Assembly: GCA_937949995.1 (NCBI GenBank)
Contig: CALFEO010000002.1
Span: 1,090-65,089, forward strand
DNA: 64,000 nucleotides
Direction: 5' to 3'
From: an uncultured bacterium
Lineage (GTDB): Bacteria > Patescibacteriota > Patescibacteriia > 2-12-FULL-60-25
The notes beneath the pieces were generated by a model that was given only the letters and a program-made list of their open reading frames with translations, did no database searches and was not told where the DNA came from. Each line of letters begins with the position of its first letter. Within the stretch, counting starts at the first letter, position 1. The position numbers and the translations under genes were made by a program. Shown piece by piece: positions 12,609 through 52,978 of this stretch.

Positions 12609-12684
12609 CGCGCCGTAGAGCAGACAGCAGCTCGCTTGCCTCATAAGCAAGAGGTCGTGGGTGCAAGTCCCACCGGTGCCACCA
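12609..12684 (+). tRNA. tRNA-Met (anticodon CAT), phage-encoded, with encoded CCA
   Basis: Manual cloverleaf: acceptor cgcgccg/cggtgcc (C1xC72 unpaired), D stem gagc/gctc, anticodon stem cttgc/gcaag, loop ctCATaa, variable aggtc, T stem gtggg/cccac, then A-CCA. Confidence 0.75.
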
Positions 12685-21342: not shown

Positions 21343-21528
21343 ATGATGAAAGAAGCCCAAAACAAGAAAATCTCGAGCGCGCCTCAATCAAAAAGCGAGG
21401 CAAAGCGCTTGGAGGTGCAAAAAGAGACTCTGCAAGAGTTTTATTTTAGTGCCACGGAAGAACGAGGACCCGTAACTATTAAAGCGACTTCACTTGATGA
21501 GGCGCGTAAAAAATATAATCAATTATGA
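21343..21528 (+). CDS. small hypothetical protein
   Basis: 61-aa ATG ORF overlapping the next start; weak support. Confidence 0.3.
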   Translation: MMKEAQNKKISSAPQSKSEAKRLEVQKETLQEFYFSATEERGPVTIKATSLDEARKKYNQL

Positions 21529-22757
21529 GCAAAATCATCGGTTCACGCCTCGACTTTGGCGTAGCAAAAGAAACAACCCGCGGAACAGCCAACGCTCCGT
21601 CTTATTGGTTGCGCCCCATGGACATTTCCGTGGATGAGAAAGTCATGCGGTCTATGGATGAAGGACGCAGGAATTTAATCGAGGACAGCATAGACTCACA
21701 AGTAGTCGGCAAATTCGCTGAGGGTGAGTTTACGGTTGCTCTTCGAGACAAATCTCTCGGCTTATTGTTCTACAACATCTTCGGGGCTGTATCCTCGGCC
21801 GTTAAAGGCGGTGAGGCGGTAGTTTATGAGCATACCTACACTGTCTATCAAAGCAATCAACATCAATCGCTCTGTGTGCACGTTAAAGAGGCAAATTCGG
21901 GTAAGGATTACGCTTTGGCCATGCTCGACTCCATGGAGCTATCAGTTGAACTGGAACGCCATGCAACGGCACAATTCGGCTTTAGAGCGAAGACCGGAGG
22001 GCTGGCGACTCTTGGCGCGTTTACGGTAACAATCGCCAATCCGGCTGTTGTTACTCTCACCGGCCACGGTTTAGTTACCGGCGACGCGGTTACGCTTGCA
22101 ACCACCGGAGCATTACCTACCGGACTCACGGCCGGCACCACTTATTACGTCGTCTATGTTACGGCTGATACCTTTAGCTTGGCGACTTCGCTGGCCAATG
22201 CTCTGGCAGGCACCAAGATTGAAACCACCGGCACGCAGTCAGGAACGCATACCGCGACCCTAGCCTCACGTTACGCCGCTTACGTAGCTGAAAACGTCTT
22301 TTTGCCGACTCACGCAAGCGTTAAATTCGCAACCAATCAAGCCGGACTCGACGCGGCCAGCGCAATCAACGTGAGATCTTGCGTAGTTAAGGTTAATAAA
22401 AACATTGAGGATGACAGAGCCTTAGGAAACGTCAATCAGGTGGACATCGTAAACAAAACCTTTTCCGTGGACGGCGAGATTGAGCTGGTCTACAACGATC
22501 AAACCTACGTTACGCAGATGTTGGACAACACAACCAAAGCCCTGCGCTTAAAACTCACCAACAGCGACGTAACTATCGGCACAGCCTCTAATCCGGACAT
22601 CCAAATTGACTTAAACAAAGTCCTGCTCGAAGAAGTAACGCGAGACCTTTCCAAAGACGGCGTGGTTACGCAAGTTTTGGCTTTCAAGGCGTTTTTCTCT
22701 GAAACGGACAGCAAAATGGTACAAGTCATTTTAACCAACCTAGCCACCTCTTACTAA
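21525..22757 (+). CDS. major tail protein with an inserted domain
   Basis: Position after the connectors; tail-tube-like N and C parts. Central insert TLTGHGLVTGDAVTLATTGALPTGLTAGTTYYVVYVTADTFSLA. Confidence 0.55.
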   Translation: MSKIIGSRLDFGVAKETTRGTANAPSYWLRPMDISVDEKVMRSMDEGRRNLIEDSIDSQVVGKFAEGEFTVALRDKSLGLLFYNIFGAVSSAVKGGEAVVYEHTYTVYQSNQHQSLCVHVKEANSGKDYALAMLDSMELSVELERHATAQFGFRAKTGGLATLGAFTVTIANPAVVTLTGHGLVTGDAVTLATTGALPTGLTAGTTYYVVYVTADTFSLATSLANALAGTKIETTGTQSGTHTATLASRYAAYVAENVFLPTHASVKFATNQAGLDAASAINVRSCVVKVNKNIEDDRALGNVNQVDIVNKTFSVDGEIELVYNDQTYVTQMLDNTTKALRLKLTNSDVTIGTASNPDIQIDLNKVLLEEVTRDLSKDGVVTQVLAFKAFFSETDSKMVQVILTNLATSY

Positions 22758-22758
22758 T

Positions 22759-23037
22759 ATGTATCGCAGACCGACCATACTTAACAAAACCCTGACATTG
22801 GCTGATACGGAATATAGTCAGGTCATTCCGGATGACACAACAAAGCTCGTCATCAAGAGCCGCTCGTTCGGAAATCTTAAAATCGCTTTTGTGGCAACCG
22901 AAAGCGGCACAAATTACCTCACCATCCCGTCGGGAAGTACGGGATACGCGCTGGATGCCGTACACCTCAAGGATTTAACTTTGTACGTGCAAAGCGATGT
23001 CGCGGGTGATGTGTGCGAGATTCTTTGCTGGAAATAA
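22759..23037 (+). CDS. hypothetical small beta-rich protein
   Basis: ATG 1 nt after the upstream stop; no motif. Confidence 0.4.
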   Translation: MYRRPTILNKTLTLADTEYSQVIPDDTTKLVIKSRSFGNLKIAFVATESGTNYLTIPSGSTGYALDAVHLKDLTLYVQSDVAGDVCEILCWK

Positions 23038-23038
23038 T

Positions 23039-23956
23039 ATGCAAATACGAAATATTGTTTTAGGTGCTTTAGCCGCCTTTATCACCACGCTGGGCGTAGC
23101 CGCATGGGCAACCGCGCAAGTAGGCTCAATCAGCTTATTTAAGCTGGTCGGAGGCACTGCTATACAGCCGATAAGGGACACATTTACCATTGGATCCAAT
23201 GCAGAACGTATAGCGCATGGATATTTTGATAATTTGACGGCAACGACAGCCACAATCACAGGCATTTCCGCAGGCGACATCTTGCCTAGTGCAAATAATA
23301 CTTATGATGTGGGGGCCTATGGCTCAGCTTGGAAAGATATTTATGCAAGTGGAACGGTCTTAACAAATTCTTTAAGTATTGATAATGGCTCAGTCGGCAC
23401 ACCAAGTTTGTATTTCGCAAGCGACCCTAATACAGGTATTTGGAAACATAATACTGATACTTTAGGTATTCAATCGGGAGGCTCTAGGGCAATGATTTTT
23501 GGAACGGCTAGTAATCTTTCCTATCATGACTTAAACCCAGATACTACCAGCGCGCGCGACTTGGGTGCTACTTCACTTCATTGGGCAGAATTACACGCAG
23601 ACGACATTTACGGCTACGGCACGCTTTATACAGGCTCACGCCAATTTACAGAGGCGACAGAGGCGTCATTCTTACAAGCGGATAATCAGCCTTGTAACAA
23701 CGGATCGGGCGAACAATGCTCACTTCACTATGATATTGATAGCGAATACATGCTAAAGCTGTATGCAGAGGGTGATGGAGCGGGTGGAATACAAAATAAG
23801 TCAATCAATCTGTACCCAGAAACTTTGAGAGTAGGTGAGGCAAACTCAACATCATATATGTTTATTGGAGCTGGAGATGGGTGTATGGAGCTTGCTTTTA
23901 CAACCAGTTCAACTTTTCCAACCGCTAGTCCAACCAGTACTTCACTTTGTAATTAG
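23039..23956 (+). CDS. N-terminally anchored tail-fibre-like protein with Cys...CN C-terminal module
   Basis: ATG 23039. TM/signal-like IVLGALAAFITTLGVAAWATA; fibre repeat PSANNTYDVGAYGSAWKDIYASG; C-terminus matches 12216..12524. Confidence 0.6.
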   Translation: MQIRNIVLGALAAFITTLGVAAWATAQVGSISLFKLVGGTAIQPIRDTFTIGSNAERIAHGYFDNLTATTATITGISAGDILPSANNTYDVGAYGSAWKDIYASGTVLTNSLSIDNGSVGTPSLYFASDPNTGIWKHNTDTLGIQSGGSRAMIFGTASNLSYHDLNPDTTSARDLGATSLHWAELHADDIYGYGTLYTGSRQFTEATEASFLQADNQPCNNGSGEQCSLHYDIDSEYMLKLYAEGDGAGGIQNKSINLYPETLRVGEANSTSYMFIGAGDGCMELAFTTSSTFPTASPTSTSLCN

Positions 23957-23957
23957 T

Positions 23958-24584
23958 ATGAATACCTTCAAAGATTTAACTAACAAAAAGTTTGGCAGAT
24001 GGACTGTAAAGTCTATCGCTGGGCAGAATAATCGAAAGAAATATCTTTGGAATTGCATTTGTGATTGCGGAACAGAAAAAATTATAATGTCAACAAGTTT
24101 AATCAGCGGGAATAGCAAGAGCTGCGGTTGTTATCAAAAAGAAGTGGTGACAAGACATGGATTATTTAGCCATCCATTAGCACATGTTCATAGAAGCATG
24201 ATGGACAGGTGCTATAACGATAGATGCCCATCCTATAAAGATTATGGGGCTAGAGGCATTGAAGTGTGTGAAAGATGGAAAGATGTCAAAAATTTTGTGG
24301 CTGATTTAGAAAAATCTTACTTAACGGCTAAAAAGAATGGCGGTTATATATCTCTAGATAGGATTAACAATAATAAGAGTTACAGCCCTACAAATACCAG
24401 ATGGGCTGACAGAAAAACACAGCAGAATAATAGGAGAACTAACCATTTTATCCAGTTCGAGGGTATTGAATTAACAATTGCCCAATGGGCAGATAGGCAA
24501 TGTATGAAACGAGAAACTTTAGTCAGTAGATTAAGAAACAATTGGCCTATTGAAAAAGCCTTAACACAGCCAGTTAAAGTATGA
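23958..24584 (+). CDS. Cys-rich DNA-binding-type protein (AP2/homing-endonuclease-associated family, tentative)
   Basis: ATG 23958. FGRWTV...YLWNCICDCG...SCGC, then YGARGIEVCERW and RWADRKTQQNNRR, a pattern common in phage freestanding DNA-binding/HNH-associated genes. Confidence 0.45.
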   Translation: MNTFKDLTNKKFGRWTVKSIAGQNNRKKYLWNCICDCGTEKIIMSTSLISGNSKSCGCYQKEVVTRHGLFSHPLAHVHRSMMDRCYNDRCPSYKDYGARGIEVCERWKDVKNFVADLEKSYLTAKKNGGYISLDRINNNKSYSPTNTRWADRKTQQNNRRTNHFIQFEGIELTIAQWADRQCMKRETLVSRLRNNWPIEKALTQPVKV

Positions 24585-25891
24585 TTAAGAAATTTTTTAT
24601 TAGCTTTCTAGCCCTTACAACAATCCTCTCAATGACGGGGAGCGTTTTTGCGCTTGGCACATTTAAGGATGGGGAGAAGCAGTTGTTGACAGATGGCGAC
24701 ATGGAAGCGGCGGGTATTTCGTGGGCATCAGGTGGTGCGGCGACATTATCAAAGTCAACGGATTTGCCCCATTCGGGAAATAAGGCATTGCGGGCGACAT
24801 ATAGTGGCTCGGCTACGGCATATATTTATATCACTCCAACAGGGATGACTCCCGGAGAAACGTATAAATTGGGCGTTTGGACTCGCACGGATGGAACGGC
24901 TACGATGAGGTTCCAGGACGGGGTGGTTTGGTTTGGAATCGGCCCGGTTGCTCCCACGGAATGGACATATTATGAGGCCGTAGTAACAGCGGGGGGCAGT
25001 AGCTTGTATTGGGAGGTTACTTTTGGTGGCGGCACATGGGCAGAGATTGATGATGTTGTTTTTACCGAATACAAAGGCGAAACGCTTAATGCGGAGAAGC
25101 AGGTTTTAGTTAATGGTGATTTAGAAATTGGGGCAACCACCGGATGGATTGCTGGAGCAAGTGCGACATTGACGGCAGATACGACCAGCCCATTCGACGG
25201 TACTTACAGCCTTAAAGTTGCTCACAATGGAACAAACTCACCCTACGCTTACCAGGCTGTTAGCGCGGCTACTAAATATCATGTTACTGGAGTAGCCTCC
25301 GGTGACGGCACTTTTGCCCCAAATATTCGAGACCATGGCGGTACTCTGTTTTGGACGGGTACAAATAGTACAAGCTGGCAATATTTTGATTTGACGTATA
25401 CCTCTGTTGGTTCAAGGCTTGATTTTGTTTGCGGAGCAACAGGGGCAGGCTATTGCAAATTTGATAACGTAACAGTTACCAAATACAAAGGCGAAACGCT
25501 TAATGCGGAGAAGCAGATCATGGCGGACGGGGATATGGAGGCGAGCGGAACCACAGCATGGACGGCAAATCTTTCCTCAACGCCGTCTAAGGTTGCTGGC
25601 TATTATGGTGTTGGTCTGCAAACCGTCGCCGGCTCAAATACCAACTATACGGGGCAAACGGCTACTGTCAGCGGTAGTAGATATAAGGTTTCAGGTTATT
25701 ACAGGGTTACAGGTGGTGGCGGCAATGCTGTTATAAGAAGCACTACGTCAATAGTCGCTACGCTTGGCAATCTTGCAACGTGGACATATTTCAGCGCGGA
25801 ATTTACGGCTGTAAGCAGTTTTTGGGGCGTTGGAGCAAGTCTTAACGGGACAACAGTGCAATGGGACGAACTAACATTGACACGATTATAA
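24581..25891 (+). CDS. secreted protein with three carbohydrate-binding-module-like repeats
   Basis: Signal peptide (FFISFLALTTILSMTGSVFA). Three ~138-aa repeats each opening with (E)KQ.L.(D/N)GD(M/L)E, as in CBM4/9-type modules. Identical 35-nt DNA at 25068 and 25482. Confidence 0.55.
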   Translation: MIKKFFISFLALTTILSMTGSVFALGTFKDGEKQLLTDGDMEAAGISWASGGAATLSKSTDLPHSGNKALRATYSGSATAYIYITPTGMTPGETYKLGVWTRTDGTATMRFQDGVVWFGIGPVAPTEWTYYEAVVTAGGSSLYWEVTFGGGTWAEIDDVVFTEYKGETLNAEKQVLVNGDLEIGATTGWIAGASATLTADTTSPFDGTYSLKVAHNGTNSPYAYQAVSAATKYHVTGVASGDGTFAPNIRDHGGTLFWTGTNSTSWQYFDLTYTSVGSRLDFVCGATGAGYCKFDNVTVTKYKGETLNAEKQIMADGDMEASGTTAWTANLSSTPSKVAGYYGVGLQTVAGSNTNYTGQTATVSGSRYKVSGYYRVTGGGGNAVIRSTTSIVATLGNLATWTYFSAEFTAVSSFWGVGASLNGTTVQWDELTLTRL

Positions 25892-25929
25892 AGAGGAAAT
25901 TAACAGCAACACATCTAAAATTGACTAAT

Positions 25930-26343
25930 ATGGATAGTAAAAAAGCATTGATTGGAGCAGGAACAGTAGCGGCTGTCGCAACAGGCGTGTGGCTTACGGT
26001 ATCCGAGCCTAAGGAAGTACCGCTTACAGCAACTAAAGACCAAGAGGCTTACAAGACCACATTGCAAACCTGCGATTCTAAGGGCTTAAACTGCCGTGTA
26101 TTGACCAAAGACGAGTACATGGGGCTTAGAGCCTATTACGCAGGAAAAGTGGACGCTACGGGGCATTTTACGGGTTCATGGCAGGATTTGCAGACGTATA
26201 TCCAATTAGTCAATGAGGATGCCAAAGCGAAAGACGAGCCTGTAATTTCAGGAGAGTTTAAGGATGGTGTAATCATCGAAAAAATAAATGAAAGATTAAA
26301 ACCTAAAGTAATCGAAGTAACACCTAAAGAAATAACCAAATAA
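25930..26343 (+). CDS. N-terminally membrane-anchored protein, unknown function
   Basis: ATG 25930. TM helix ALIGAGTVAAVATGVWLTV, then a soluble domain. Confidence 0.45.
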   Translation: MDSKKALIGAGTVAAVATGVWLTVSEPKEVPLTATKDQEAYKTTLQTCDSKGLNCRVLTKDEYMGLRAYYAGKVDATGHFTGSWQDLQTYIQLVNEDAKAKDEPVISGEFKDGVIIEKINERLKPKVIEVTPKEITK

Positions 26344-26351
26344 GAGGGGAT

Positions 26352-26612
26352 ATGAGCAATGAGAATCAATTTATCGACATGCTGAAAGCGCACACTGAAA
26401 ATGAGGAGCGCAGATTTAACGCCATAGAACACGGCATCGAAACGATAAAAAACAATCATCTCGCTCATATTGAAGAAGACATCTCGGACATTCAAAAGAA
26501 GCAATCAACACACTCATCCGACATAGGTTGGATAAAGTGGCTGGTTACAACAACGCTCGGAGCTGTGATAGTGGGAATCATATCCGCAGTGTTGGCTTTA
26601 ATTCTTAAGTAG
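26352..26612 (+). CDS. XhlA-like lysis-associated membrane protein
   Basis: Coiled-coil N-terminus plus a single C-terminal TM helix (WLVTTTLGAVIVGIISAVLALIL); SD agagggg; precedes the holin. Confidence 0.45.
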   Translation: MSNENQFIDMLKAHTENEERRFNAIEHGIETIKNNHLAHIEEDISDIQKKQSTHSSDIGWIKWLVTTTLGAVIVGIISAVLALILK

Positions 26613-26617
26613 GTAAT

Positions 26618-26911
26618 ATGGATACATTTATTCAAATTTTAAGTACATTGTTGCTGATAGCCGGTGGAGCCGGTGGAGTCTGGGGAGCTACGGAGATCGT
26701 CAAGCGATCAAAAAACATTCCTTGGATCAACGAAGGTAATAAGCCGGCTTTGCGTGCAACCGCCGCCGCATTTTCCGCCCTAGCTGTCGTTTTTCTCGGT
26801 TTAGTCTCCGGAAGTCTCACGCCGGAAAGCGTTCAGGATGTTTTTGTGAAAATCTTAGAAGCTGGAATTATTTGGGCGGGCGCACACGGAATGCACAAAC
26901 TAAACAAATAA
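26618..26911 (+). CDS. holin
   Basis: 97 aa, 2-3 TM helices, charged C-terminus; lies in the lysis cassette. Confidence 0.55.
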   Translation: MDTFIQILSTLLLIAGGAGGVWGATEIVKRSKNIPWINEGNKPALRATAAAFSALAVVFLGLVSGSLTPESVQDVFVKILEAGIIWAGAHGMHKLNK

Positions 26912-27010
26912 CAGATATCTTGAGCCTCTTTGGGGCGTTTTAGGGCGGTACAATTCGTACCTTCCATGCAGACATGCATGTTCATCACCGCCCGCGCCAT
27001 GGAGGTTGAA

Positions 27011-27187
27011 ATGGCAAAAAGCAAAAGGAAGAAGCACCAGCTGGCTGAAATCGCCAGAATGGAACTTGAAAATGGACAGGTTGTGATTACACCTGTTGAA
27101 AAGGAGGAGAAAATCAGTATCAAGGAGGCTTTCCGCCGAGGACAGCGAAAGCCCAAACTGCTCATTAAAAGCTCACATGGAGGATGA
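27011..27187 (+). CDS. small basic protein (58 aa)
   Basis: GGAGG 5 nt upstream of ATG 27011 (MAKSKRKK). Confidence 0.4.
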   Translation: MAKSKRKKHQLAEIARMELENGQVVITPVEKEEKISIKEAFRRGQRKPKLLIKSSHGG

Positions 27188-27188
27188 C

Positions 27189-27392
27189 ATGCGCAAGAAG
27201 TGCTTGAGTTGCGGTAAGGACTGGATTGAGGGAAAACCCGATGACGGGCTCATCTCTCACGGGATATGCTCCGAGCGTTGCGGGCGATTGCTGGAACTTT
27301 GGAGCTATACGAACAGAAACATCTCACTGCGGGATTTTGCAAGAGAAAGGATGGACAATGAAAACCTACCTTCAACACCGCCCCTCTGTTGA
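27189..27392 (+). CDS. small 4-Cys zinc-ribbon protein (67 aa)
   Basis: GGAGG at 27179-27183, ATG 27189. CLSCG...HGICSERC. Confidence 0.45.
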   Translation: MRKKCLSCGKDWIEGKPDDGLISHGICSERCGRLLELWSYTNRNISLRDFARERMDNENLPSTPPLC

Positions 27393-27591
27393 CGTAACCA
27401 TTCTGGATACTCAACGCCGTCCACTGCGCTTCACTATGAAACGTCTCGCCATGCTTCGAGACCTGCAGGTGGAGTTTCCCGAGCTCCCCGTTTACTGCGA
27501 AGTGAACGGAGAGCACAAACATGTACCTCTTGAGGCAATCGAACTATGGGACATGGGTATCCTCATGATCCGCAATACGAGCGCCGCTTAA
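27358..27591 (+). CDS. small hypothetical protein (77 aa)
   Basis: ATG 27358 overlapping the previous gene; followed by a cluster of GC hairpins (27596-27700). Confidence 0.4.
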   Translation: MKTYLQHRPSVDVTILDTQRRPLRFTMKRLAMLRDLQVEFPELPVYCEVNGEHKHVPLEAIELWDMGILMIRNTSAA

Positions 27592-27728
27592 CCTTGCCGA
27601 CGGATTCCACATCTGTCGGCCTCCCACCGAGAACATAGTTGGGAAGCTCGGCGGGCGTAACTCGTTCCACGCCCCTGTCGACGGGTGGGGCCCCACCCTT
27701 ATCGACGCTAATTCATAACTCAAACAGT

Positions 27729-28031
27729 ATGGATAAAGAGAATATCGTTAAGTTGTATGCCGCTTATTTGGGCTGTAATGCCGACGTAGCCGAGGGACAG
27801 GTGAATTTTCACCTCGAGGGCGGAGGCGCTTTAGACTCGCGTTTAGTTGACCTTGAGGTCTCCATGAACGGCGAGGACAGCGTTCTAAAGCCTTTGCGCG
27901 ACGCTTATTATGCCGTTAAAGGCATGGAAGCCCCGCCGTTATCACTGACCGTTGAGACGGCTGATAATTACGAGATTGAGAAGCTCAAAACAGCTCTAAA
28001 ATCGCTCGCACCCTCCGAGAGTGCCGATTAA
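27729..28031 (+). CDS. hypothetical protein
   Basis: First ATG of track ORF 27639..28031; acidic, no motif. Confidence 0.4.
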   Translation: MDKENIVKLYAAYLGCNADVAEGQVNFHLEGGGALDSRLVDLEVSMNGEDSVLKPLRDAYYAVKGMEAPPLSLTVETADNYEIEKLKTALKSLAPSESAD

Positions 28032-28141
28032 TCTCAATCTACGGAATCATCCCGTCTTTCATCGCTGAAAGGCTGGAGAGGATGACGCTTTAGTCGTGTT
28101 CCGTTCCCGCTTAGATACTCAGTCTAGGCGGAGGCGAGAAT

Positions 28142-28723
28142 ATGAAAAAACTATTTATTGACTTAGGCCACAGCCTAAAATACCCGGGCGCGTACGGACA
28201 TAAAACCGAGGTCCAATGGTCCCGTTGGATTTGGGGCTACTTGCACCACATGCTTGACGCGCAGGTGGACAATGCGGGTAATAAGAAATGGGAAATATTG
28301 CTGGTACCGGACAAGTTCGTTACGGATTGGTCGAGCAATCGCAACCTCATCAACCGCATAAACTGGATTAACGCGCGCAGTAAGACATGGCGCGATTATC
28401 TGCTCTCTATTCATGGAAACTGGGCCGGCAGAGACTTTGTTCGCGGTGTTACAACCGTTTACATGGGTGGGAGTAAAGTGGCTCAAAGTGAAGCATATGA
28501 GATGAGCAAGGCCTATTCCGAAGTTACCGGTGTACCGATTTGGAACGGCGGGGCTTTTGACGATAGAGATTCACGCTTCGGCCGTGTTGGCATGGTACGC
28601 GACACTAATCCGCTCGCCTTGCTCATTGAAGCCGGCTTTGTTACTTCCAAGGAAGACATGGACGTCGACGCACGCAAGGCGGCCGAGGGGATAGCCAAAT
28701 ACTTCGATTGTATAGATTTTTGA
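28142..28723 (+). CDS. N-acetylmuramoyl-L-alanine amidase (Amidase_3-type endolysin)
   Basis: IDLGHS, SIHGNW and ALLIEAGFVTSKED motifs; SD ggagg. Confidence 0.85.
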   Translation: MKKLFIDLGHSLKYPGAYGHKTEVQWSRWIWGYLHHMLDAQVDNAGNKKWEILLVPDKFVTDWSSNRNLINRINWINARSKTWRDYLLSIHGNWAGRDFVRGVTTVYMGGSKVAQSEAYEMSKAYSEVTGVPIWNGGAFDDRDSRFGRVGMVRDTNPLALLIEAGFVTSKEDMDVDARKAAEGIAKYFDCIDF

Positions 28724-28773
28724 AAAATGTATAGGTTTGGACGTGAATATGAACGATTTTGCGTGTTTTATTA

Positions 28774-28802
28774 TTGACTGGCGTCACTTTGTATTGTAAA
28801 AT
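28774..28802 (+). promoter_or_regulatory. sigma70-like promoter
   Basis: TTGACT - 17 nt - TAAAAT. Confidence 0.45.
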
Positions 28803-28808
28803 ACCTAC

Positions 28809-28987
28809 ATTCATTGAAAATCTAGCTTTTGTTTCAAGCCAAAAGCAAGCAATGTTGCCTAGCACTCCAAAAGGCGACCATCAAAAGGAGCTATCCCGCT
28901 GAACCGTTAAGGTTTGTCGGGTGCTTGAACACTTGCCGACTACACCATGAGAGTAGAAGGCGGGATAGTTGCTTTTGGTGGTTTTTC
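28809..28987 (+). ncRNA. candidate structured RNA / leader closed by a 22-position stem plus U-tract
   Basis: ccatcaaaaggagctatcccgc (28878-28899) pairs with gcgggatagttgcttttggtgg (28960-28981): 1 mismatch, 2 GU. Followed by TTTTT. An upstream hairpin gcttttg..caaaagc is present. No ORF. Confidence 0.4.
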
Positions 28988-29081
28988 TTATCCTTCGTTG
29001 GTTAGACGGATCGCACGTTCTGGCTGTCCATAACACCACGTGCAATCCGGCGAACTATAACGGCCGGTAAGATAACAAGCT

Positions 29082-29255
29082 ATGCTAATTTGCAGGGCTT
29101 GGATCACTGTTAACGGGGAACGCCTCTATGCCAGCGACTACGGTCGCAAAGCATTTTGCTGGGATTCTTCAAAGGAAGCGCAAGCTATCTGGAGAGCCAA
29201 GCTAAAACGAAAAGGCCGCCGTAAACAGCGACCCGCCAAACTAACAAAAGTGTAA
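29082..29255 (+). CDS. possible small basic protein (57 aa)
   Basis: MLICRAWITVNGERLYASDYGRKAFCW...KLKRKGRRKQRPAKLTKV. Below the track threshold; no clear SD; followed by a terminator. Confidence 0.3.
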   Translation: MLICRAWITVNGERLYASDYGRKAFCWDSSKEAQAIWRAKLKRKGRRKQRPAKLTKV

Positions 29256-29271
29256 AAACTTTTACCAAATT

Positions 29272-29292
29272 CCCCATTACCGTGGGGTTTTT
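29272..29292 (+). terminator. intrinsic terminator
   Basis: cccca-ttaccg-tgggg followed by ttttt. Confidence 0.6.
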
Positions 29293-29447
29293 GGTTTCTT
29301 AGCAATATATTGCAATATTGTCAAGCGTCCCCATTATACCACAAAAAATCATTCGCTTTTTGTTCTATTTAGCCCGTTTGTGGACAACCTCAAGGTCTCA
29401 GACGGGCTTTTTGCTACTTTGACAATATAATCATTAACTAAACCTAT

Positions 29448-29792
29448 ATGGAGCGAGAAACACGCACAATCACAGCCCCTAGCGGCAAAGAGGTGGTCAT
29501 GAAGACTTATCTAACCCCTCGAGAATTGCGGGAAATTAAGAAGATTTACGTTAATTTGGTGCAATCAGCACCGCGCCCGGGCGAGAGCGTCAAGCTGGTG
29601 GGAGTAGGGGACGCGCAAGAGCAAGCCGAGAACAAACTCATCGAGCTATCTGTTACCTCATACGACGGATCCGCTGAGGATGTTCTTAACCGCTTACTGG
29701 ACGGCAATCCACAAGAGGGCAATGCCGAGGATTACGACTTTGTGCTGGAAAAAGCCAACGAGCTGAACGCCCCTTTGCAGACAGCGAAATAG
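29448..29792 (+). CDS. tail assembly chaperone (gpG-like, 0-frame product)
   Basis: 114-aa acidic protein immediately upstream of the tape-measure region; carries the frameshift signal near its 3' end. Confidence 0.65.
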   Translation: MERETRTITAPSGKEVVMKTYLTPRELREIKKIYVNLVQSAPRPGESVKLVGVGDAQEQAENKLIELSVTSYDGSAEDVLNRLLDGNPQEGNAEDYDFVLEKANELNAPLQTAK

Positions 29793-49012: not shown

Positions 49013-49402
49013 TCAACGCCGCTGGGCATCAATAAACACTAAAAATAAATACTCCAAACCTACCACGACCAATAAAAACGCCACCAGCGTATACCATCTT
49101 AGCCAATCATTCGCGGAAAAAATCAAAGTTATAACCGCAACAGACGAAAGCAAGAGCGCATGCCTGAAGGATACTCTAACCTCTTTAACCAACATTTCAT
49201 TTCTTTTACGAAAGCCTATCCTGTAAATCAAACCCAATAAAGTTATCATGCCGACCAAAGCTAAAAACAAAGTCACGAAGAAAAAAACCTTACCCAAAAT
49301 GCCGGCTTCATCAGGATTTACGGTTTGTAAGATAATAATCCAAGCCACCCAGGCCAAACCTGTTCCCAATCCCATTAATATCGCATACCACTTAAAACTC
49401 AT
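49013..49402 (-). CDS. small 4-TM membrane protein
   Basis: ATG ORF, four hydrophobic helices. The conserved promoter module lies immediately upstream. Confidence 0.5.
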   Translation of the reverse strand: MSFKWYAILMGLGTGLAWVAWIIILQTVNPDEAGILGKVFFFVTLFLALVGMITLLGLIYRIGFRKRNEMLVKEVRVSFRHALLLSSVAVITLIFSANDWLRWYTLVAFLLVVVGLEYLFLVFIDAQRR

Positions 49403-50032: not shown

Positions 50033-52978
50033 CTATTTCCTATATTCGCAGATGTGTTTAAAATCACAAAATTTGCATAAAAACATCGAAGGCGTTGCCG
50101 GAAAAGATGATTTGATTATTTCATCCATCCTGTCCACCAGTGCCTCTTGAAATTTTATCTTATCCATTCCTTCCAGCAAAGGCACGTCCTCCATCACTTT
50201 TGATCTTACGAAAGAATATGCAAGACGTTTAACCGTAAGTCCTCGAGCCTCTGATGCCAGCTGATACAACCACAACTGTTCTTTATCCGTAAGCTCGGCT
50301 TTTTTGCCCTCTTGCCACTCTCCGGTTTTATAATCGATAATCGCAATCCCGCCCAAAACATCATCAATTCTATCTATTTTACCTTTAATGGAATGCTCTC
50401 CCAATCGCCAATCAAAACCTTGTTCCAAAGCTCTCACTTTTGGAGGGTTGGCGGTACATTCTTCCACAAAATATTTTACCGCTTTTCTCCCCTCTTCGAA
50501 ATATTCATCATGTAAATCTCTGCTTGTATACCAAGCATCAATCCAACTCTCCTCATATATCTTCAAAGCTTCATCCATGCTGACTGTAAAACCGGTTGTT
50601 TGTTGTATTTGAGGTACGCTATCAAATAAACTCACTTGTCTTACTCCGCTTCTTTCCAAATGTCTCGCCAAAATCAATTGCAAAGTCAAATGAATCGATT
50701 GCCCGAAACTTTTTTGATAAGAACCCAAAACCGGTATGCGATAAATATGCGCAAACTTATATTGCATGGGACAGTTTTTATAAGCCACCAATTGCGTAAA
50801 CGAAAATCTGCGTTTTAAAGGAAACACTTCCCGCCACGCTTCCGCCTCCAAAGCCCCGATTTTCGGTGCTTCCAACCCGTGCATATCTACCGCCTCTCTG
50901 GCCGGCGCCATCGGAACTTCCAACCCCGCTTCCGCAAAAAAAGCCGAAGGTTTTTTATCCCTTGCTCCACCATACGATTTGGCCCCGGTCAACACCAAAC
51001 GCCTTTTGGCGCGGGTCATCGCCACATAAAACAATCTCCTCTCCTCTTCAATATGCGCATCCCCTTCTTGCAATCTCTCTTGCACCAAACCATCAGGCAA
51101 AGCGATAGACTCCGATCTTTTGCGAGTTGGAAATCTCTGATCAACGAGCGACACCAAATACACCGTATCAAACTCAAGACCTTTCGAAGCATGCACCGTC
51201 ATTACTCTAACCATATCCGGCCCGCCTTCAGCATCTTGATGCAATGCGCCTTGCTCCCCGCTCTCAATCTCCATTCTCAATTCCTCTACAAACTCTTTCA
51301 AATTAGGCGCATTCGTGGAATATTCGTATCGTCTGATCCTGGAAACAAATTCATTCAACAGTGCTATTGATTCAACCTTATCTTTTTCCGGCTGTTTTAA
51401 AAGATAAGCCAAATAACCCGTCTGCTCCAACGCCGTATGCAAAACCGTTAATGGCGTATCTCTCCGGGCCGTCTCCGCCAATTTTTCTAAATTGCTTGCT
51501 AATTTTTCAAATCTTTTTACAACATCGGGATCTTCTTTTAAAAACAGCCTGACTTGCGGTAAAGCCTCGTAAAAAGTTATTCCCTTACGTTCCGAATATT
51601 TTAATAATTGCATGATACCGGCATAAGAAATCGGATAACTGGGCAGATGCAGCAATCGCCAAATAACCGAATTATCATGCGGACGAACAATCGAGGTCAT
51701 AAGAGCGATTACATCCAAAATAACAGGTTTGGTATAAAGTCCGCGCAAAGCGAAAAATTTATACGGCACACCGCGCCTTTCCAATGCCTGCACAAACGGA
51801 ACCGCGTCATCATTGGATCTGACCAAAATCGCATTATCGCTCCATGCCAGCTTTTCCGAATGTCTGTTCGCAATATCATCCGCCACCCATTCAGCCTCTT
51901 GTTGCACACTCGCATCCCAATGCACCAAGACTTGAGCTCCCGAACCCCGAAAAGCTTTAAGCTCTTTCTTAAGACCCTGATCCGCAAGCGATACTTCCAA
52001 TCGATTTGGATTATTCTTGGTTATCAAACAATAAGCCGTATCCAAAACTTCTTGATGCGATCTGTAATTATCAATCAAAGCGACTGTGGCGGTATCTTTA
52101 TAATCATCTTTAAACTGCAAAATGTTCGCCAAAGACGCTCCGCGAAATTTATAAATAGCCTGATCATCATCACCCACCACGGTGATATTCCGATCCGGCT
52201 CTGCCAAGAGCTTTATCAGCTCATACTGAGCCCAATTGGTATCCTGAAACTCATCAACCAGCAGATACTTAAACTGCCTGCGGTATTGATCCAAAACCGC
52301 CGGCCTCTCTTTAAACAATCTTAAAGTCTCCATGATCAAATCCCCAAAATCCAACACACCCTCATCACGCAAAATCTTTTGATAAGCCGCGTAAACATCC
52401 GCCAACTCTTTCAATCTCTTCTTCTCTCCCAAAACAATCTCCGTGTCACCATCCAATTTTACATTTTCCGCAAACTCAACATATCTATCCGGAGTTATTC
52501 CCTCATCTTTGGCTCTCGAGATATGCCTCAATAAAGCTTGCAAAAACTTAACCGGATTTCCAAGCGGTCGATAATAATCCAATGGCAATTCATCAAATCT
52601 GCGCTTCAACATCAGCCAAGCATCCGTATCGCTGACCAATCTGAATGTATTGGGAATCCCAATCTCCAATCCATGCGCTTCCAAAATTCTTTGGCATAAA
52701 CCATGAAAAGTATGAATCCAAAAATCATAAGTCCCTATGGGTAACATTTCCAATACCCTATCCTCCATTTCTTGCGCCGCTTTTTCTGTAAAAGTTACCG
52801 CTGCGATTTGTTCCGTGGTTAAACCTTTTTCTTGCATTAACCATACGCATCTCTTGGTTAAAACGGTTGTCTTGCCCGTGCCGGCTCCCGCCACGATTAA
52901 AAGCGGCCCCGTTTCATGGGTTACCGCTTTCTTTTGAGCTTCATTTAAATTTTCAAGAAGATTTTCCATGACCGACAT
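50033..52978 (-). CDS. UvrD/PcrA-type helicase fused to a C-terminal PD-(D/E)XK (Cas4/AddB-like, 4-Cys) nuclease
   Basis: AGAGTGKT Walker A, DEFQDT, helicase motifs. C-terminus: YKNCPMQYKF...IDRID...IIDYKTG...CKFCDFKHIC. Confidence 0.85.
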   Translation of the reverse strand: MSVMENLLENLNEAQKKAVTHETGPLLIVAGAGTGKTTVLTKRCVWLMQEKGLTTEQIAAVTFTEKAAQEMEDRVLEMLPIGTYDFWIHTFHGLCQRILEAHGLEIGIPNTFRLVSDTDAWLMLKRRFDELPLDYYRPLGNPVKFLQALLRHISRAKDEGITPDRYVEFAENVKLDGDTEIVLGEKKRLKELADVYAAYQKILRDEGVLDFGDLIMETLRLFKERPAVLDQYRRQFKYLLVDEFQDTNWAQYELIKLLAEPDRNITVVGDDDQAIYKFRGASLANILQFKDDYKDTATVALIDNYRSHQEVLDTAYCLITKNNPNRLEVSLADQGLKKELKAFRGSGAQVLVHWDASVQQEAEWVADDIANRHSEKLAWSDNAILVRSNDDAVPFVQALERRGVPYKFFALRGLYTKPVILDVIALMTSIVRPHDNSVIWRLLHLPSYPISYAGIMQLLKYSERKGITFYEALPQVRLFLKEDPDVVKRFEKLASNLEKLAETARRDTPLTVLHTALEQTGYLAYLLKQPEKDKVESIALLNEFVSRIRRYEYSTNAPNLKEFVEELRMEIESGEQGALHQDAEGGPDMVRVMTVHASKGLEFDTVYLVSLVDQRFPTRKRSESIALPDGLVQERLQEGDAHIEEERRLFYVAMTRAKRRLVLTGAKSYGGARDKKPSAFFAEAGLEVPMAPAREAVDMHGLEAPKIGALEAEAWREVFPLKRRFSFTQLVAYKNCPMQYKFAHIYRIPVLGSYQKSFGQSIHLTLQLILARHLERSGVRQVSLFDSVPQIQQTTGFTVSMDEALKIYEESWIDAWYTSRDLHDEYFEEGRKAVKYFVEECTANPPKVRALEQGFDWRLGEHSIKGKIDRIDDVLGGIAIIDYKTGEWQEGKKAELTDKEQLWLYQLASEARGLTVKRLAYSFVRSKVMEDVPLLEGMDKIKFQEALVDRMDEIIKSSFPATPSMFLCKFCDFKHICEYRK

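Follow-up and report, generated by a model that had tools for sequence, protein, structure and literature searches.

The DNA analysed here, referred to as the window, is a stretch of 64,000 nucleotides (nt) from an uncultured bacterium of the Patescibacteria (contig CALFEO010000002.1 of assembly GCA_937949995.1, positions 1,090 to 65,089, forward strand). It contains a siphovirus-type prophage on the + strand, in which an amidase (lysis) gene (28142-28723, + strand) and a chaperone-like open reading frame (ORF; 29448-29792, + strand, 114 amino acids (aa)) are separated by a gap of 724 nt (28724-29447, + strand). The gap houses a cassette of 613 nt (28762..29374, + strand), in which a predicted promoter, a structured RNA of 165 nt, a hairpin in the 5' untranslated region (UTR), a 57-codon ORF for a small basic protein and a terminator follow one another, and in which a convergent antisense unit is predicted on the opposite strand. 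Three of its features stand out: the structured RNA, which is supported by covariation and absent from Rfam; the small basic protein family, which is unannotated and has at least 583 members from Bacillales to Patescibacteria; and the recurrent antisense arrangement around this family. The layout of the cassette suggests tight RNA-level control of the protein.

The gap had been described in a first-pass annotation as a self-contained, moron-like cassette with its own signals and without a + strand ORF of 60 aa or more. Every element listed in that annotation is present, displaced by 1-2 nt at most, and the + strand ORFs of the gap are indeed only 47, 58, 33, 57 and 34 aa long. Missing from it were the kissing pairing and the four-way junction of the RNA, the family to which the ORF belongs, the antisense unit, and the probable position of a further hairpin, at 29371-29408, outside the cassette.

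Extent and polymorphism of the cassette

The boundaries of the cassette are given by the alignment with L050, a close relative in which the cassette is absent. The alignment to the window stops at 28761 and restarts at 29375, and in L050 the amidase and the chaperone-like genes are spaced by 107 nt only. Locus L049, from a related prophage, has the full cassette in the same amidase-to-chaperone slot. In L048, 47 nt take the place of 28762-29098; the promoter, the RNA, the 5' UTR and the start codon are lost, and a start-less remnant of the ORF is left. At 2447-2493 of L048 the -35 region (gttattgacagg) is kept and a 26-nt hairpin insertion (AACTATCCGGAATTTCTGGATAGTTT) has been gained just upstream of it. 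The flanking DNA is 83-91% identical between the window and its close relatives, which, with a full, half-deleted or absent cassette, constitute a natural experiment.

In L005, a more distant phage, an ImmA-like gene and a membrane-protein gene occupy the slot of the cassette. In other Patescibacteria phages the RNA and the ORF are found together in unrelated contexts: L007 has them where two divergent gene blocks meet, and in L042, from a Patescibacteria metagenome-assembled genome, they adjoin an integrase gene. A DNA search of 50,697 genomes of isolated phages gave no match. This distribution bears out the moron-like character ascribed to the locus in the first pass: on the evidence of the alignments, 28762-29374 is a dispensable, mobile accessory cassette (moron) of a Patescibacteria siphovirus-type prophage. 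Its site is best read as lying between the stop codon of the amidase gene and the old terminator of that gene.

The putative old terminator is a second + strand hairpin followed by a U-run (29371..29413), the arms of which (29371-29380 / 29399-29408) were found by repeat search. It is located at, or just outside, the right edge of the cassette. Because a shortened version of the 29371-29408 hairpin trails the amidase gene by ~40 nt in the cassette-less L050, this hairpin probably represents the original terminator of the lysis genes and not a part of the cassette.

Several repeats are found in this region. The tails of the two + strand terminators (29284-29309 / 29404-29429) form a 26-nt direct repeat with 73% identity, 120 nt apart, the copies of which end in TTAGCAATATA and TTGACAATATA, and a 10-nt inverted repeat (ATATTGTCAA / TTGACAATAT) is present at 29315-29324 and 29419-29428. 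The repeats at the terminator tails could mark a junction between modules or serve as an operator. The whole gap is bracketed by a 14-nt inverted repeat (28755-28768 / 29458-29471) with 93% complementarity, the left arm of which is at the left edge of the cassette and the right arm in the first codons of the 114-aa ORF.

The structured RNA

The RNA is preceded by a sigma-70-type promoter, TTGACT-17-TAAAAT (28774..28802, + strand), which was recorded in the first pass and matches the consensus at 10/12 positions in our scan. The match is weak on its own, since promoter-like sites in the 3-kb region (5, with 3.6 expected by chance) are not above the chance number. The homologous promoter of L049 is TTGACA-17-TATAAT (12/12), and the distance from the -10 element to the first hairpin of the RNA is 22-23 nt in both sequences.

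The predicted structure (28825-28987, + strand) is comprised of a 5' hairpin, a four-way junction of helices P1 to P4, and a run of five U residues. The 5' hairpin, P0a (GCUUUUG / CAAAAGC, 28825..28846, + strand), carries the loop UUCAAG, which is the 5' half of a loop-loop (kissing) pairing. It is followed by the variable hairpin P0b (GCCU / AGGC, 28857..28875, + strand), which is GCCC/GGGC, a compensated change, in L007, longer in L042 and absent from L049; P0b is therefore not regarded as a core element. The closing helix, P1 (28877-28899 / 28960-28982, + strand), encloses the 60 nt of the four-way junction and has an invariant U-G wobble at position 5. The first-pass annotation had given a 22-position stem, 28878-28899 / 28960-28981, around 60 nt and ending in U5; the stem, its loop and the U5 are as described there, and the arms, as found by repeat search, are in fact 23 positions long. 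Inside the junction, P2 (AACC / GGUU, 28902..28914, + strand) has the loop GUUAA in the window, GUAA in L007 and UUCG in L042. P3 (28916..28940, + strand) bears the apical loop CUUGAA (28924-28929), the 3' half of the kissing pairing, and contains GUGCU..AACAC, the most conserved block of the RNA. In P4 (28941..28955, + strand) the position of the stem is kept and its sequence is variable, with the loop GAAA in L007 and L049. Several members have GNRA or UUCG tetraloops in P2 and P4. The U-tract (28983..28987, + strand) is directly 3' of P1, and a run of 4-5 U directly after P1 is found in 4/4 homologues. P1 with its U5 (28960-28987) is located 95 nt upstream of the ORF and looks like an intrinsic terminator or attenuator, a function which is predicted only.

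The set of RNA homologues consists of four distinct sequences: the window, L007 (= phage L011), L042 (= phage L046) and L049. L007 was found with a pattern derived from the stem, and its copy in L011 sits on a 1.36-Mb metagenome contig; L042 and L049 were reached via the small ORF and the phage relatives. The DNA similarity between the window and L007/L011 is limited to 28829-28989 (162 nt, 85% identity), that is, from the interior of the first hairpin to the U-tract. The fold energy is -55 kcal/mol (z = -6.2) on the + strand and -40.9 kcal/mol (z = -4.3) on the - strand, and the G-U pairs of the long stem are specific to the + strand. A covariance model built from the window, L007 and L042 scores the unseen L049 at 91 bits, and model scores are 157-196 bits for the + strand vs 25-31 bits for the - strand.

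In the model alignment 86.5% of the cells are paired, vs 37-48% in slid controls, and double changes are found at 18 pairs, vs 3-5 in the slid controls, with 0/500 shuffles reaching the observed value; these counts lean toward the proposed structure because the alignment was fitted to it. P1 has double changes at 8/23 pairs and 93.5% of its cells paired, whereas the outer stem of P3 (55%) and P4 (58%) are poorly aligned in the same model-fitted alignment. A hand-curated table of the four sequences gives compensatory positions at 6/7 pairs of P0a, 8/23 of P1 and 1/4 of P2. The homology and covariation search that had been suggested in the first pass thus shows the structure of the RNA to be kept by covariation.

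The loops of P0a and P3 covary with each other. They are UUCAAG/CUUGAA in the window and L007, UUCAUAG/CUAUGAA in L042 and UUAGUAG/CUACUAA in L049, and are perfectly complementary in 4/4 sequences. Three positions are compensated and one indel is matched in both loops, which indicates that P0a and P3 make a loop-loop (kissing) interaction. This pairing offers a built-in handle for mutate-and-compensate experiments.

The RNA has diverged more than its surroundings. Its copies in the window and L049, compared from the promoter spacer through the 3' arm of P1, share 55-65% identity, vs 85-96% for the ORF and the flanks, so that the RNA unit has apparently either been exchanged or evolves much faster than the neighbouring DNA. 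Downstream of the RNA, the 5'-UTR hairpin D2 (29008..29048, + strand) has the arms GGATCGCACGT / ACGTGCAATCC at 29008-29018 / 29038-29048, where the first-pass annotation had placed a further stem at about 29010-29050. In L049 D2 shows one compensatory change, from A-U to G-C, and retains an identical C-A mismatch.

The RNA does not belong to a described family. In a search of the window with Rfam 15 only a tRNA at 12609 passed the gathering score, and the best match in the gap had E = 2.9 (limit E 10); the large phage RNAs ROOL and GOLLD and the toxin-antitoxin RNAs named in the first pass were covered, as were riboswitches and ribozymes, and no family matched in the gap. Thirteen related loci gave no Rfam match at E up to 0.1, and ARAGORN reported no tRNA or tmRNA in the gap. 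Exact-pattern scans, four of viral contigs, one of metagenome contigs and one of genome contigs, yielded L007/L011 and L042/L046 as the only true homologues. L008-L010, from the first viral scan, are three palindromic chance matches. The 21 matches on genome contigs equal the chance expectation, and the covariance model supports none of them at the position of the pattern; its single match among them, of 17 bits, is elsewhere in L017. As judged by these sequence comparisons, the RNA is a new structured class, rare so far, with four sequences which all come from Patescibacteria genomes or from metagenome 3300029288.

Other members of the ORF family (L043, L040, L038, L055 and L051) have leaders of similar architecture that the covariance model R1 does not detect. 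Those at L043 2700-3000, L055 2150-2330, L040 2250-2400 and L038 2290-2400 are unrelated in sequence and similar in architecture: a closing helix of 22-35 bp surrounds a multibranch core and is followed by a U-run. In L043, the 5' hairpin loop UUGGUCG is complementary to the interior segment AGACCAU. These four leaders may be remote relatives of the window RNA.

Two other interpretations of the fold were discarded. A tRNA-like or Y-RNA-like junction does not fit the order of the helices and the sizes of the loops, and the tRNA and YrlA models gave no match. Attenuation by a possible 16-codon upstream ORF (28855-28902), which overlaps the 5' arm of P1, was rejected for this RNA class because L007 has ATT instead of ATG and no in-frame start was seen in L042.

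The small protein, the antisense unit and the surrounding genes

The 57-codon ORF (29082..29255, + strand) encodes a very basic protein with an isoelectric point (pI) of 10.8. It was recognized in the first pass, where no family could be assigned to it, and hundreds of homologues now confirm it. A word-indexed search with the ORF alone found no matches, an exhaustive phmmer search found 20 small proteins at E < 1e-3, and a profile search extended the family to at least 583 members. The family has the core ICR[PA]WITxxGxRIYAxxxGKKAFC[FW], represented in the window by a protein of the 'ICRxWITxxGxRxYAxxxGxKAFC[FW]' type, and a charged, often lysine-rich tail; its median length is 51 aa and its median pI 9.7. 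Members come from Bacillales, Patescibacteria and other groups, and all are annotated as 'hypothetical'. The N-terminus of the ORF, MLICR, agrees with the start of many of them.

The protein is hydrophilic: its highest Kyte-Doolittle value in a 17-residue window is 0.56 (family maximum 1.12) and its grand average of hydropathy (GRAVY) is -0.78. The AlphaFold2 model, with a mean predicted local distance difference test (pLDDT) score of 82, and of 94 over residues 1-30, has four short strands and a charged C-terminal helix. Searches of the ORF and the family against Pfam, PHROG, NCBIfam and PADLOC and against PDB sequences gave no match, profile and fold searches of the PDB and BFVD gave no informative match, and tblastn of the family consensus against genomes of isolated phages gave marginal matches only (E >= 0.2). 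Family members are usually encoded next to a tyrosine or serine integrase, an ImmA/IrrE peptidase or an Xre repressor, in many cases at the end of a prophage.

The ORF has no Shine-Dalgarno sequence. This is no argument against it, as most phage and host genes in the window are also devoid of one. The size of the family and the confident predicted fold indicate that the ORF is real. It is followed by the sense terminator (29272..29292, + strand), which had been called at the same place in the first pass and has a 6-bp G+C-rich stem (29272-29287) and then TTTTT; the terminator is conserved in L049.

These data bear on a trivial explanation of the locus, in which the hairpins would do no more than terminate or insulate transcription where the lysis operon meets the tail operon, or the gap would be a decayed protein gene, and the ORF would be spurious. 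The gap does separate two operons, the terminator-like sites in the region are no commoner than in shuffled sequence (5 vs 3.7), and the ORF is without a Shine-Dalgarno sequence. This explanation is already contradicted by two lines of evidence: covariation, seen as compensatory changes in five helices and in the kissing pair, and a protein family of at least 583 members with a confident predicted fold. The scarcity of Shine-Dalgarno sequences throughout the window deprives the lack of one before the ORF of its weight, and no reading frame is maintained across the RNA, where an indel puts the window and L007 out of frame with each other. We regard such an explanation as barely credible.

A family subgroup linked to ImmA/Xre genes has a different leader. 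In L033, L034, L035 and L037 a tiny ORF of 15-17 codons (M..NKKSPCRGPT..) with a strong Shine-Dalgarno sequence is located ~130-230 nt 5' of the small ORF (at 2501 in each) and extends over the 5' arm of a long-range stem with a U-run at its end, an arrangement that resembles leader-peptide attenuation. L033-L035 also have an upstream AGUCGC (GUCGC in L035), the complement of which, GCGACU (GCGAC in L035), is found within or next to the terminator hairpin 3' of the ORF.

The convergent unit begins with a predicted antisense promoter, an extended -10 element on the - strand (TGGTATAAT, reverse complement, 29333..29341) which was found by consensus scan 78 nt past the stop codon of the ORF. This -10 element is conserved in L049 and L048. 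A predicted antisense terminator (29204..29234, - strand) is positioned within the codons of the K/R-rich tail and has a 9-bp hairpin (29234-29213) and a U-run; a G-U pair of this hairpin would be an A-C mismatch on the + strand, as read from the sequence. For the antisense RNAs, lengths of ~120 nt and fold z-scores of -3.1 (window, 29326 to 29200) and -3.4 are predicted.

Similar pairs of signals surround the ORF in other loci. In L042 the minus-strand promoter is TTGACA-17-TAAAAT with a TG (11/12) and the minus-strand terminator, in the 3' end of the ORF, has an 11-bp stem. The corresponding promoter matches and terminator stems are 11/12 and 7 bp in L043, 10/12 and 11 bp in L051, 10/12 and 10 bp in L036, and 11/12 and 11 bp in L040. 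Both signals are present in 8/15 independent loci, with the promoters 50-134 nt past the stop codon, and a minus-strand terminator ending in the last 60 nt of the ORF is present in 9/15. The rate of both signals expected from the background of the same loci is 0.13% per locus, corresponding to a binomial P of ~4e-20, a value that is rough because it comes from our own consensus scan. The loci with the antisense unit are mostly those in which we read the fold of the leader as a long closing helix with a U-run. From these recurring signals an antisense RNA of ~120 nt is predicted.

The surroundings of the cassette are those of a late phage region in an unusual order. The phage genes, all on the + strand, begin with the terminase (13240) and continue with the portal (14655), the capsid (17833) and the tail tube (21525-22757); the tape measure gene (30205) precedes the distal tail genes, and host genes of lower G+C content adjoin the prophage from ~38.4 kb. 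The host is placed in the Patescibacteria because the 90%-identity clusters to which the tape measure and capsid proteins belong contain NCBI proteins with the name 'Patescibacteria group bacterium'. An insert of ~6.7 kb (22759-29447) separates the tail tube from the chaperone-like and tape measure genes. It contains genes for an HNH endonuclease and a carbohydrate-binding-domain protein and holin-like genes, which precede the amidase, then the amidase gene and the cassette. A lysis module amid the tail genes is an unusual gene order for a siphovirus, and the order amidase, cargo, chaperone, tape measure is also found in L005. The chaperone-like ORF may begin at an internal ATG near 29499 (MKTY...), which has GAGGTGG upstream; gene callers give the ORF 97 aa, not 114 aa, in L048 and L049. 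A tRNA-Met gene (anticodon CAT, 12609-12684) is located within the prophage just 5' of the terminase genes.

In the host region (38000-64000) several genes, e.g. those at 49402 and 63415, have a TATAAT-like box at most ~10 nt from the start codon. Together with the scarcity of Shine-Dalgarno sequences, these boxes suggest that leaderless or short-leader mRNAs are frequent in the Patescibacteria host. The same region encodes a 981-aa helicase of the PcrA/UvrD type (50033-52978, - strand), residues 858-978 of which match a Cas4-type nuclease model (E = 2e-8), so that the protein resembles an AddA-like fusion.

Possible control of the protein and comparison with known systems

The arrangement can be read as a moron in which premature termination and an antisense RNA both restrain the small protein, a reading that we hold with about even confidence. 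The sigma-70-type promoter would drive the 165-nt leader RNA, which would fold into the four-way junction and be locked by the 6-7-bp kissing pairing with the 5' hairpin. The 3' arm of P1 would zip from the top of the helix while leaving the polymerase and finish at the U-tract, and the 23-bp helix with its U5 would act as an intrinsic terminator, so that most transcripts would end as a stable RNA of ~175 nt (about 28809 to 28987). Only read-through transcripts would extend into the 5'-UTR hairpin and on to the 57-codon gene. The convergent promoter ~78 nt past the stop codon would give rise to the ~120-nt RNA, which would overlap both the sense terminator and the 3'-most ~50 nt of the ORF before stopping at the terminator within the K/R-rich tail codons. 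By pairing with the 3' end of the mRNA it would lower the stability or the translation of the latter. A potent small protein, toxin-like or a regulator of lysogeny, would be kept nearly silent in the lysogen by these two RNA-level brakes.

A number of observations weigh against this reading. All three RNAs are predicted from sequence signals. The sense promoters of L007 and L042 are weak, and the antisense promoter of the window is an extended -10 element without a good -35. The statistics of the antisense unit derive from our own consensus scans of loci which share ancestry in the ORF and not in the flanks; the ImmA-linked, Bacillales-type loci are without the unit, and the complementarity of the antisense RNA to the 5' UTR does not exceed that of shuffled controls. 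The protein has no hydrophobic segment, in contrast to the usual hydrophobic character of known type I toxins. In view of the divergence of the RNA between the window and L049, RNA and ORF may be separable modules. The RNA may also have a further function, since a simple attenuator needs neither a conserved four-way junction nor a kissing pair. Finally, if P1 terminates efficiently, the expression of the ORF would be left unexplained. An alternative 'anti-P1' pairing, between the segment just 3' of P0a (28839-28848) and the middle of the 3' arm of P1, would break the lower part of P1 and is mutually exclusive with P0a, hence with the loop-loop pairing. Its length and significance are 10 nt and P < 0.001 in the window, and 7 nt and P = 0.02 in L042; in L007 and L049 it is not significant.

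A wider proposal, which we consider doubtful, is that the 165-nt element is the founding member of a new structured-RNA class in phages of the Candidate Phyla Radiation and is more than a terminator, possibly a sensor of a factor or a partner or antitoxin of the 'ICRxWIT' protein. With the antisense RNA it would then form an undescribed three-component RNA-RNA-protein module. To our knowledge, almost nothing is known about gene regulation, toxin-antitoxin systems or defence-type modules in Patescibacteria and their phages. If the control by termination and antisense RNA is true, the cassette would be a candidate for the first RNA-controlled module in these organisms and their phages.

Classical phage morons, such as lambda bor and lom, are simple protein genes. 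The cassette shares with them the character of an extra unit, with its own consensus-match promoter and terminator, between genes that are adjacent in the relative L050. It differs in having a covarying structured RNA and a predicted antisense RNA.

With the cobalamin, lysine and purine riboswitches the RNA has in common a multi-helix junction and a covarying loop-loop contact upstream of a terminator. The leader could accordingly be imagined as a sensor of this kind, whose junction, on binding of a ligand, a tRNA or a protein, would choose between the P1 terminator and an antiterminator. The aptamer-like complexity, the conserved junction nucleotides and the anti-P1 pairing of the window and L042, with its exclusion of P0a, are what such a sensor would have. 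The lack of a significant anti-P1 pairing in L007 and L049 speaks against it, as does the 23-bp closing helix, the stability of which far exceeds that of the helices that switch in known riboswitches. The gene downstream is a phage small-protein gene and not a metabolic one, no Rfam riboswitch match was found for the RNA, and it has no known ligand. We consider a riboswitch-like function improbable.

The order of the elements is also that of the type III toxin-antitoxin systems (ToxIN, CptIN, TenpIN), which are found on phages and plasmids and consist of a promoter, a structured antitoxin RNA, an intrinsic terminator and a protein gene. The terminator-like P1 with U5 between the RNA and the ORF is kept in the four homologues, and the first-pass annotation had named an RNA-antitoxin-type pair as one possibility. 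By analogy with ToxIN, the 165-nt RNA might be the main product of the locus: a free-standing small RNA with a promoter and terminator of its own, acting in trans or as the partner or antitoxin of the basic protein, as in a type III pair or a ribonucleoprotein, the ORF being expressed by occasional read-through. The behaviour of the segment from the promoter spacer to the U-tract as an exchangeable unit between the window and L049 would suit a separate product, and a kissing pair with a four-way junction is more complex than termination requires. The K/R-rich helical tail of the modelled protein would suit nucleic-acid binding. On the other side, the RNA allele was swapped while the protein did not change to match, which is not expected if the two co-evolve tightly, and in many members of the family a leader of this class is missing or a quite different one is present.

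The defining features of type III systems are lacking. Tandem Repeats Finder detected no tandem repeats in 28600-29500 at a minimum score of 30, and the protein has 57 aa, vs ~170 aa for the ToxN/AbiQ-type endoribonucleases, and matches no ToxN/AbiQ or other defence model in Pfam or PADLOC. The cassette, which has the predicted antisense unit in addition, is therefore not a type III system, and the RNA-antitoxin pairing suggested in the first pass fails for the known family of this kind. The RNA as the main product is, in our estimate, unlikely, though less so than a riboswitch-like sensor.

For the double brake of premature termination and antisense RNA the closest parallels are the lambda cII/OOP and P22 ant/sar pairs and the type I toxin-antitoxin loci of prophages; its logic would be that of the type I loci and of lambda cII/OOP. 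In lambda cII/OOP and P22 ant/sar a small phage regulator gene has a short convergent antisense RNA over its 3' end. The antisense RNA predicted here would cover the 3' end of a small phage gene in the same manner, and members of the ORF family are found in lysogeny modules, next to integrase, ImmA and Xre genes. There is no similarity in sequence or fold, the cassette of the window is located in the late region, and its 5' structured RNA has no counterpart in the two pairs.

The type I toxin-antitoxin systems of Firmicutes prophages, txpA/RatA and bsrG/SR4 of Bacillus subtilis and the phiCD630 loci of Clostridioides difficile (PMC6563280, PMC7699646), provide the other parallel. As in these systems, the cassette has a small prophage ORF (<60 aa) with a structured 5' UTR and a patchy, dispensable distribution, the protein ends in a charged lysine-rich C-terminal tail, and a convergent cis-antisense RNA, here predicted from sequence signals, would cover the 3' end of the mRNA. 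It differs from them in that the protein has no hydrophobic or transmembrane segment and no similarity to known toxins, and in that a large conserved junction RNA with a kissing pair and its own predicted terminator precedes the ORF. Type I systems are stated to have been known only from Proteobacteria, Firmicutes and Tenericutes (PMC12390103), and the host of the cassette belongs to the Patescibacteria.

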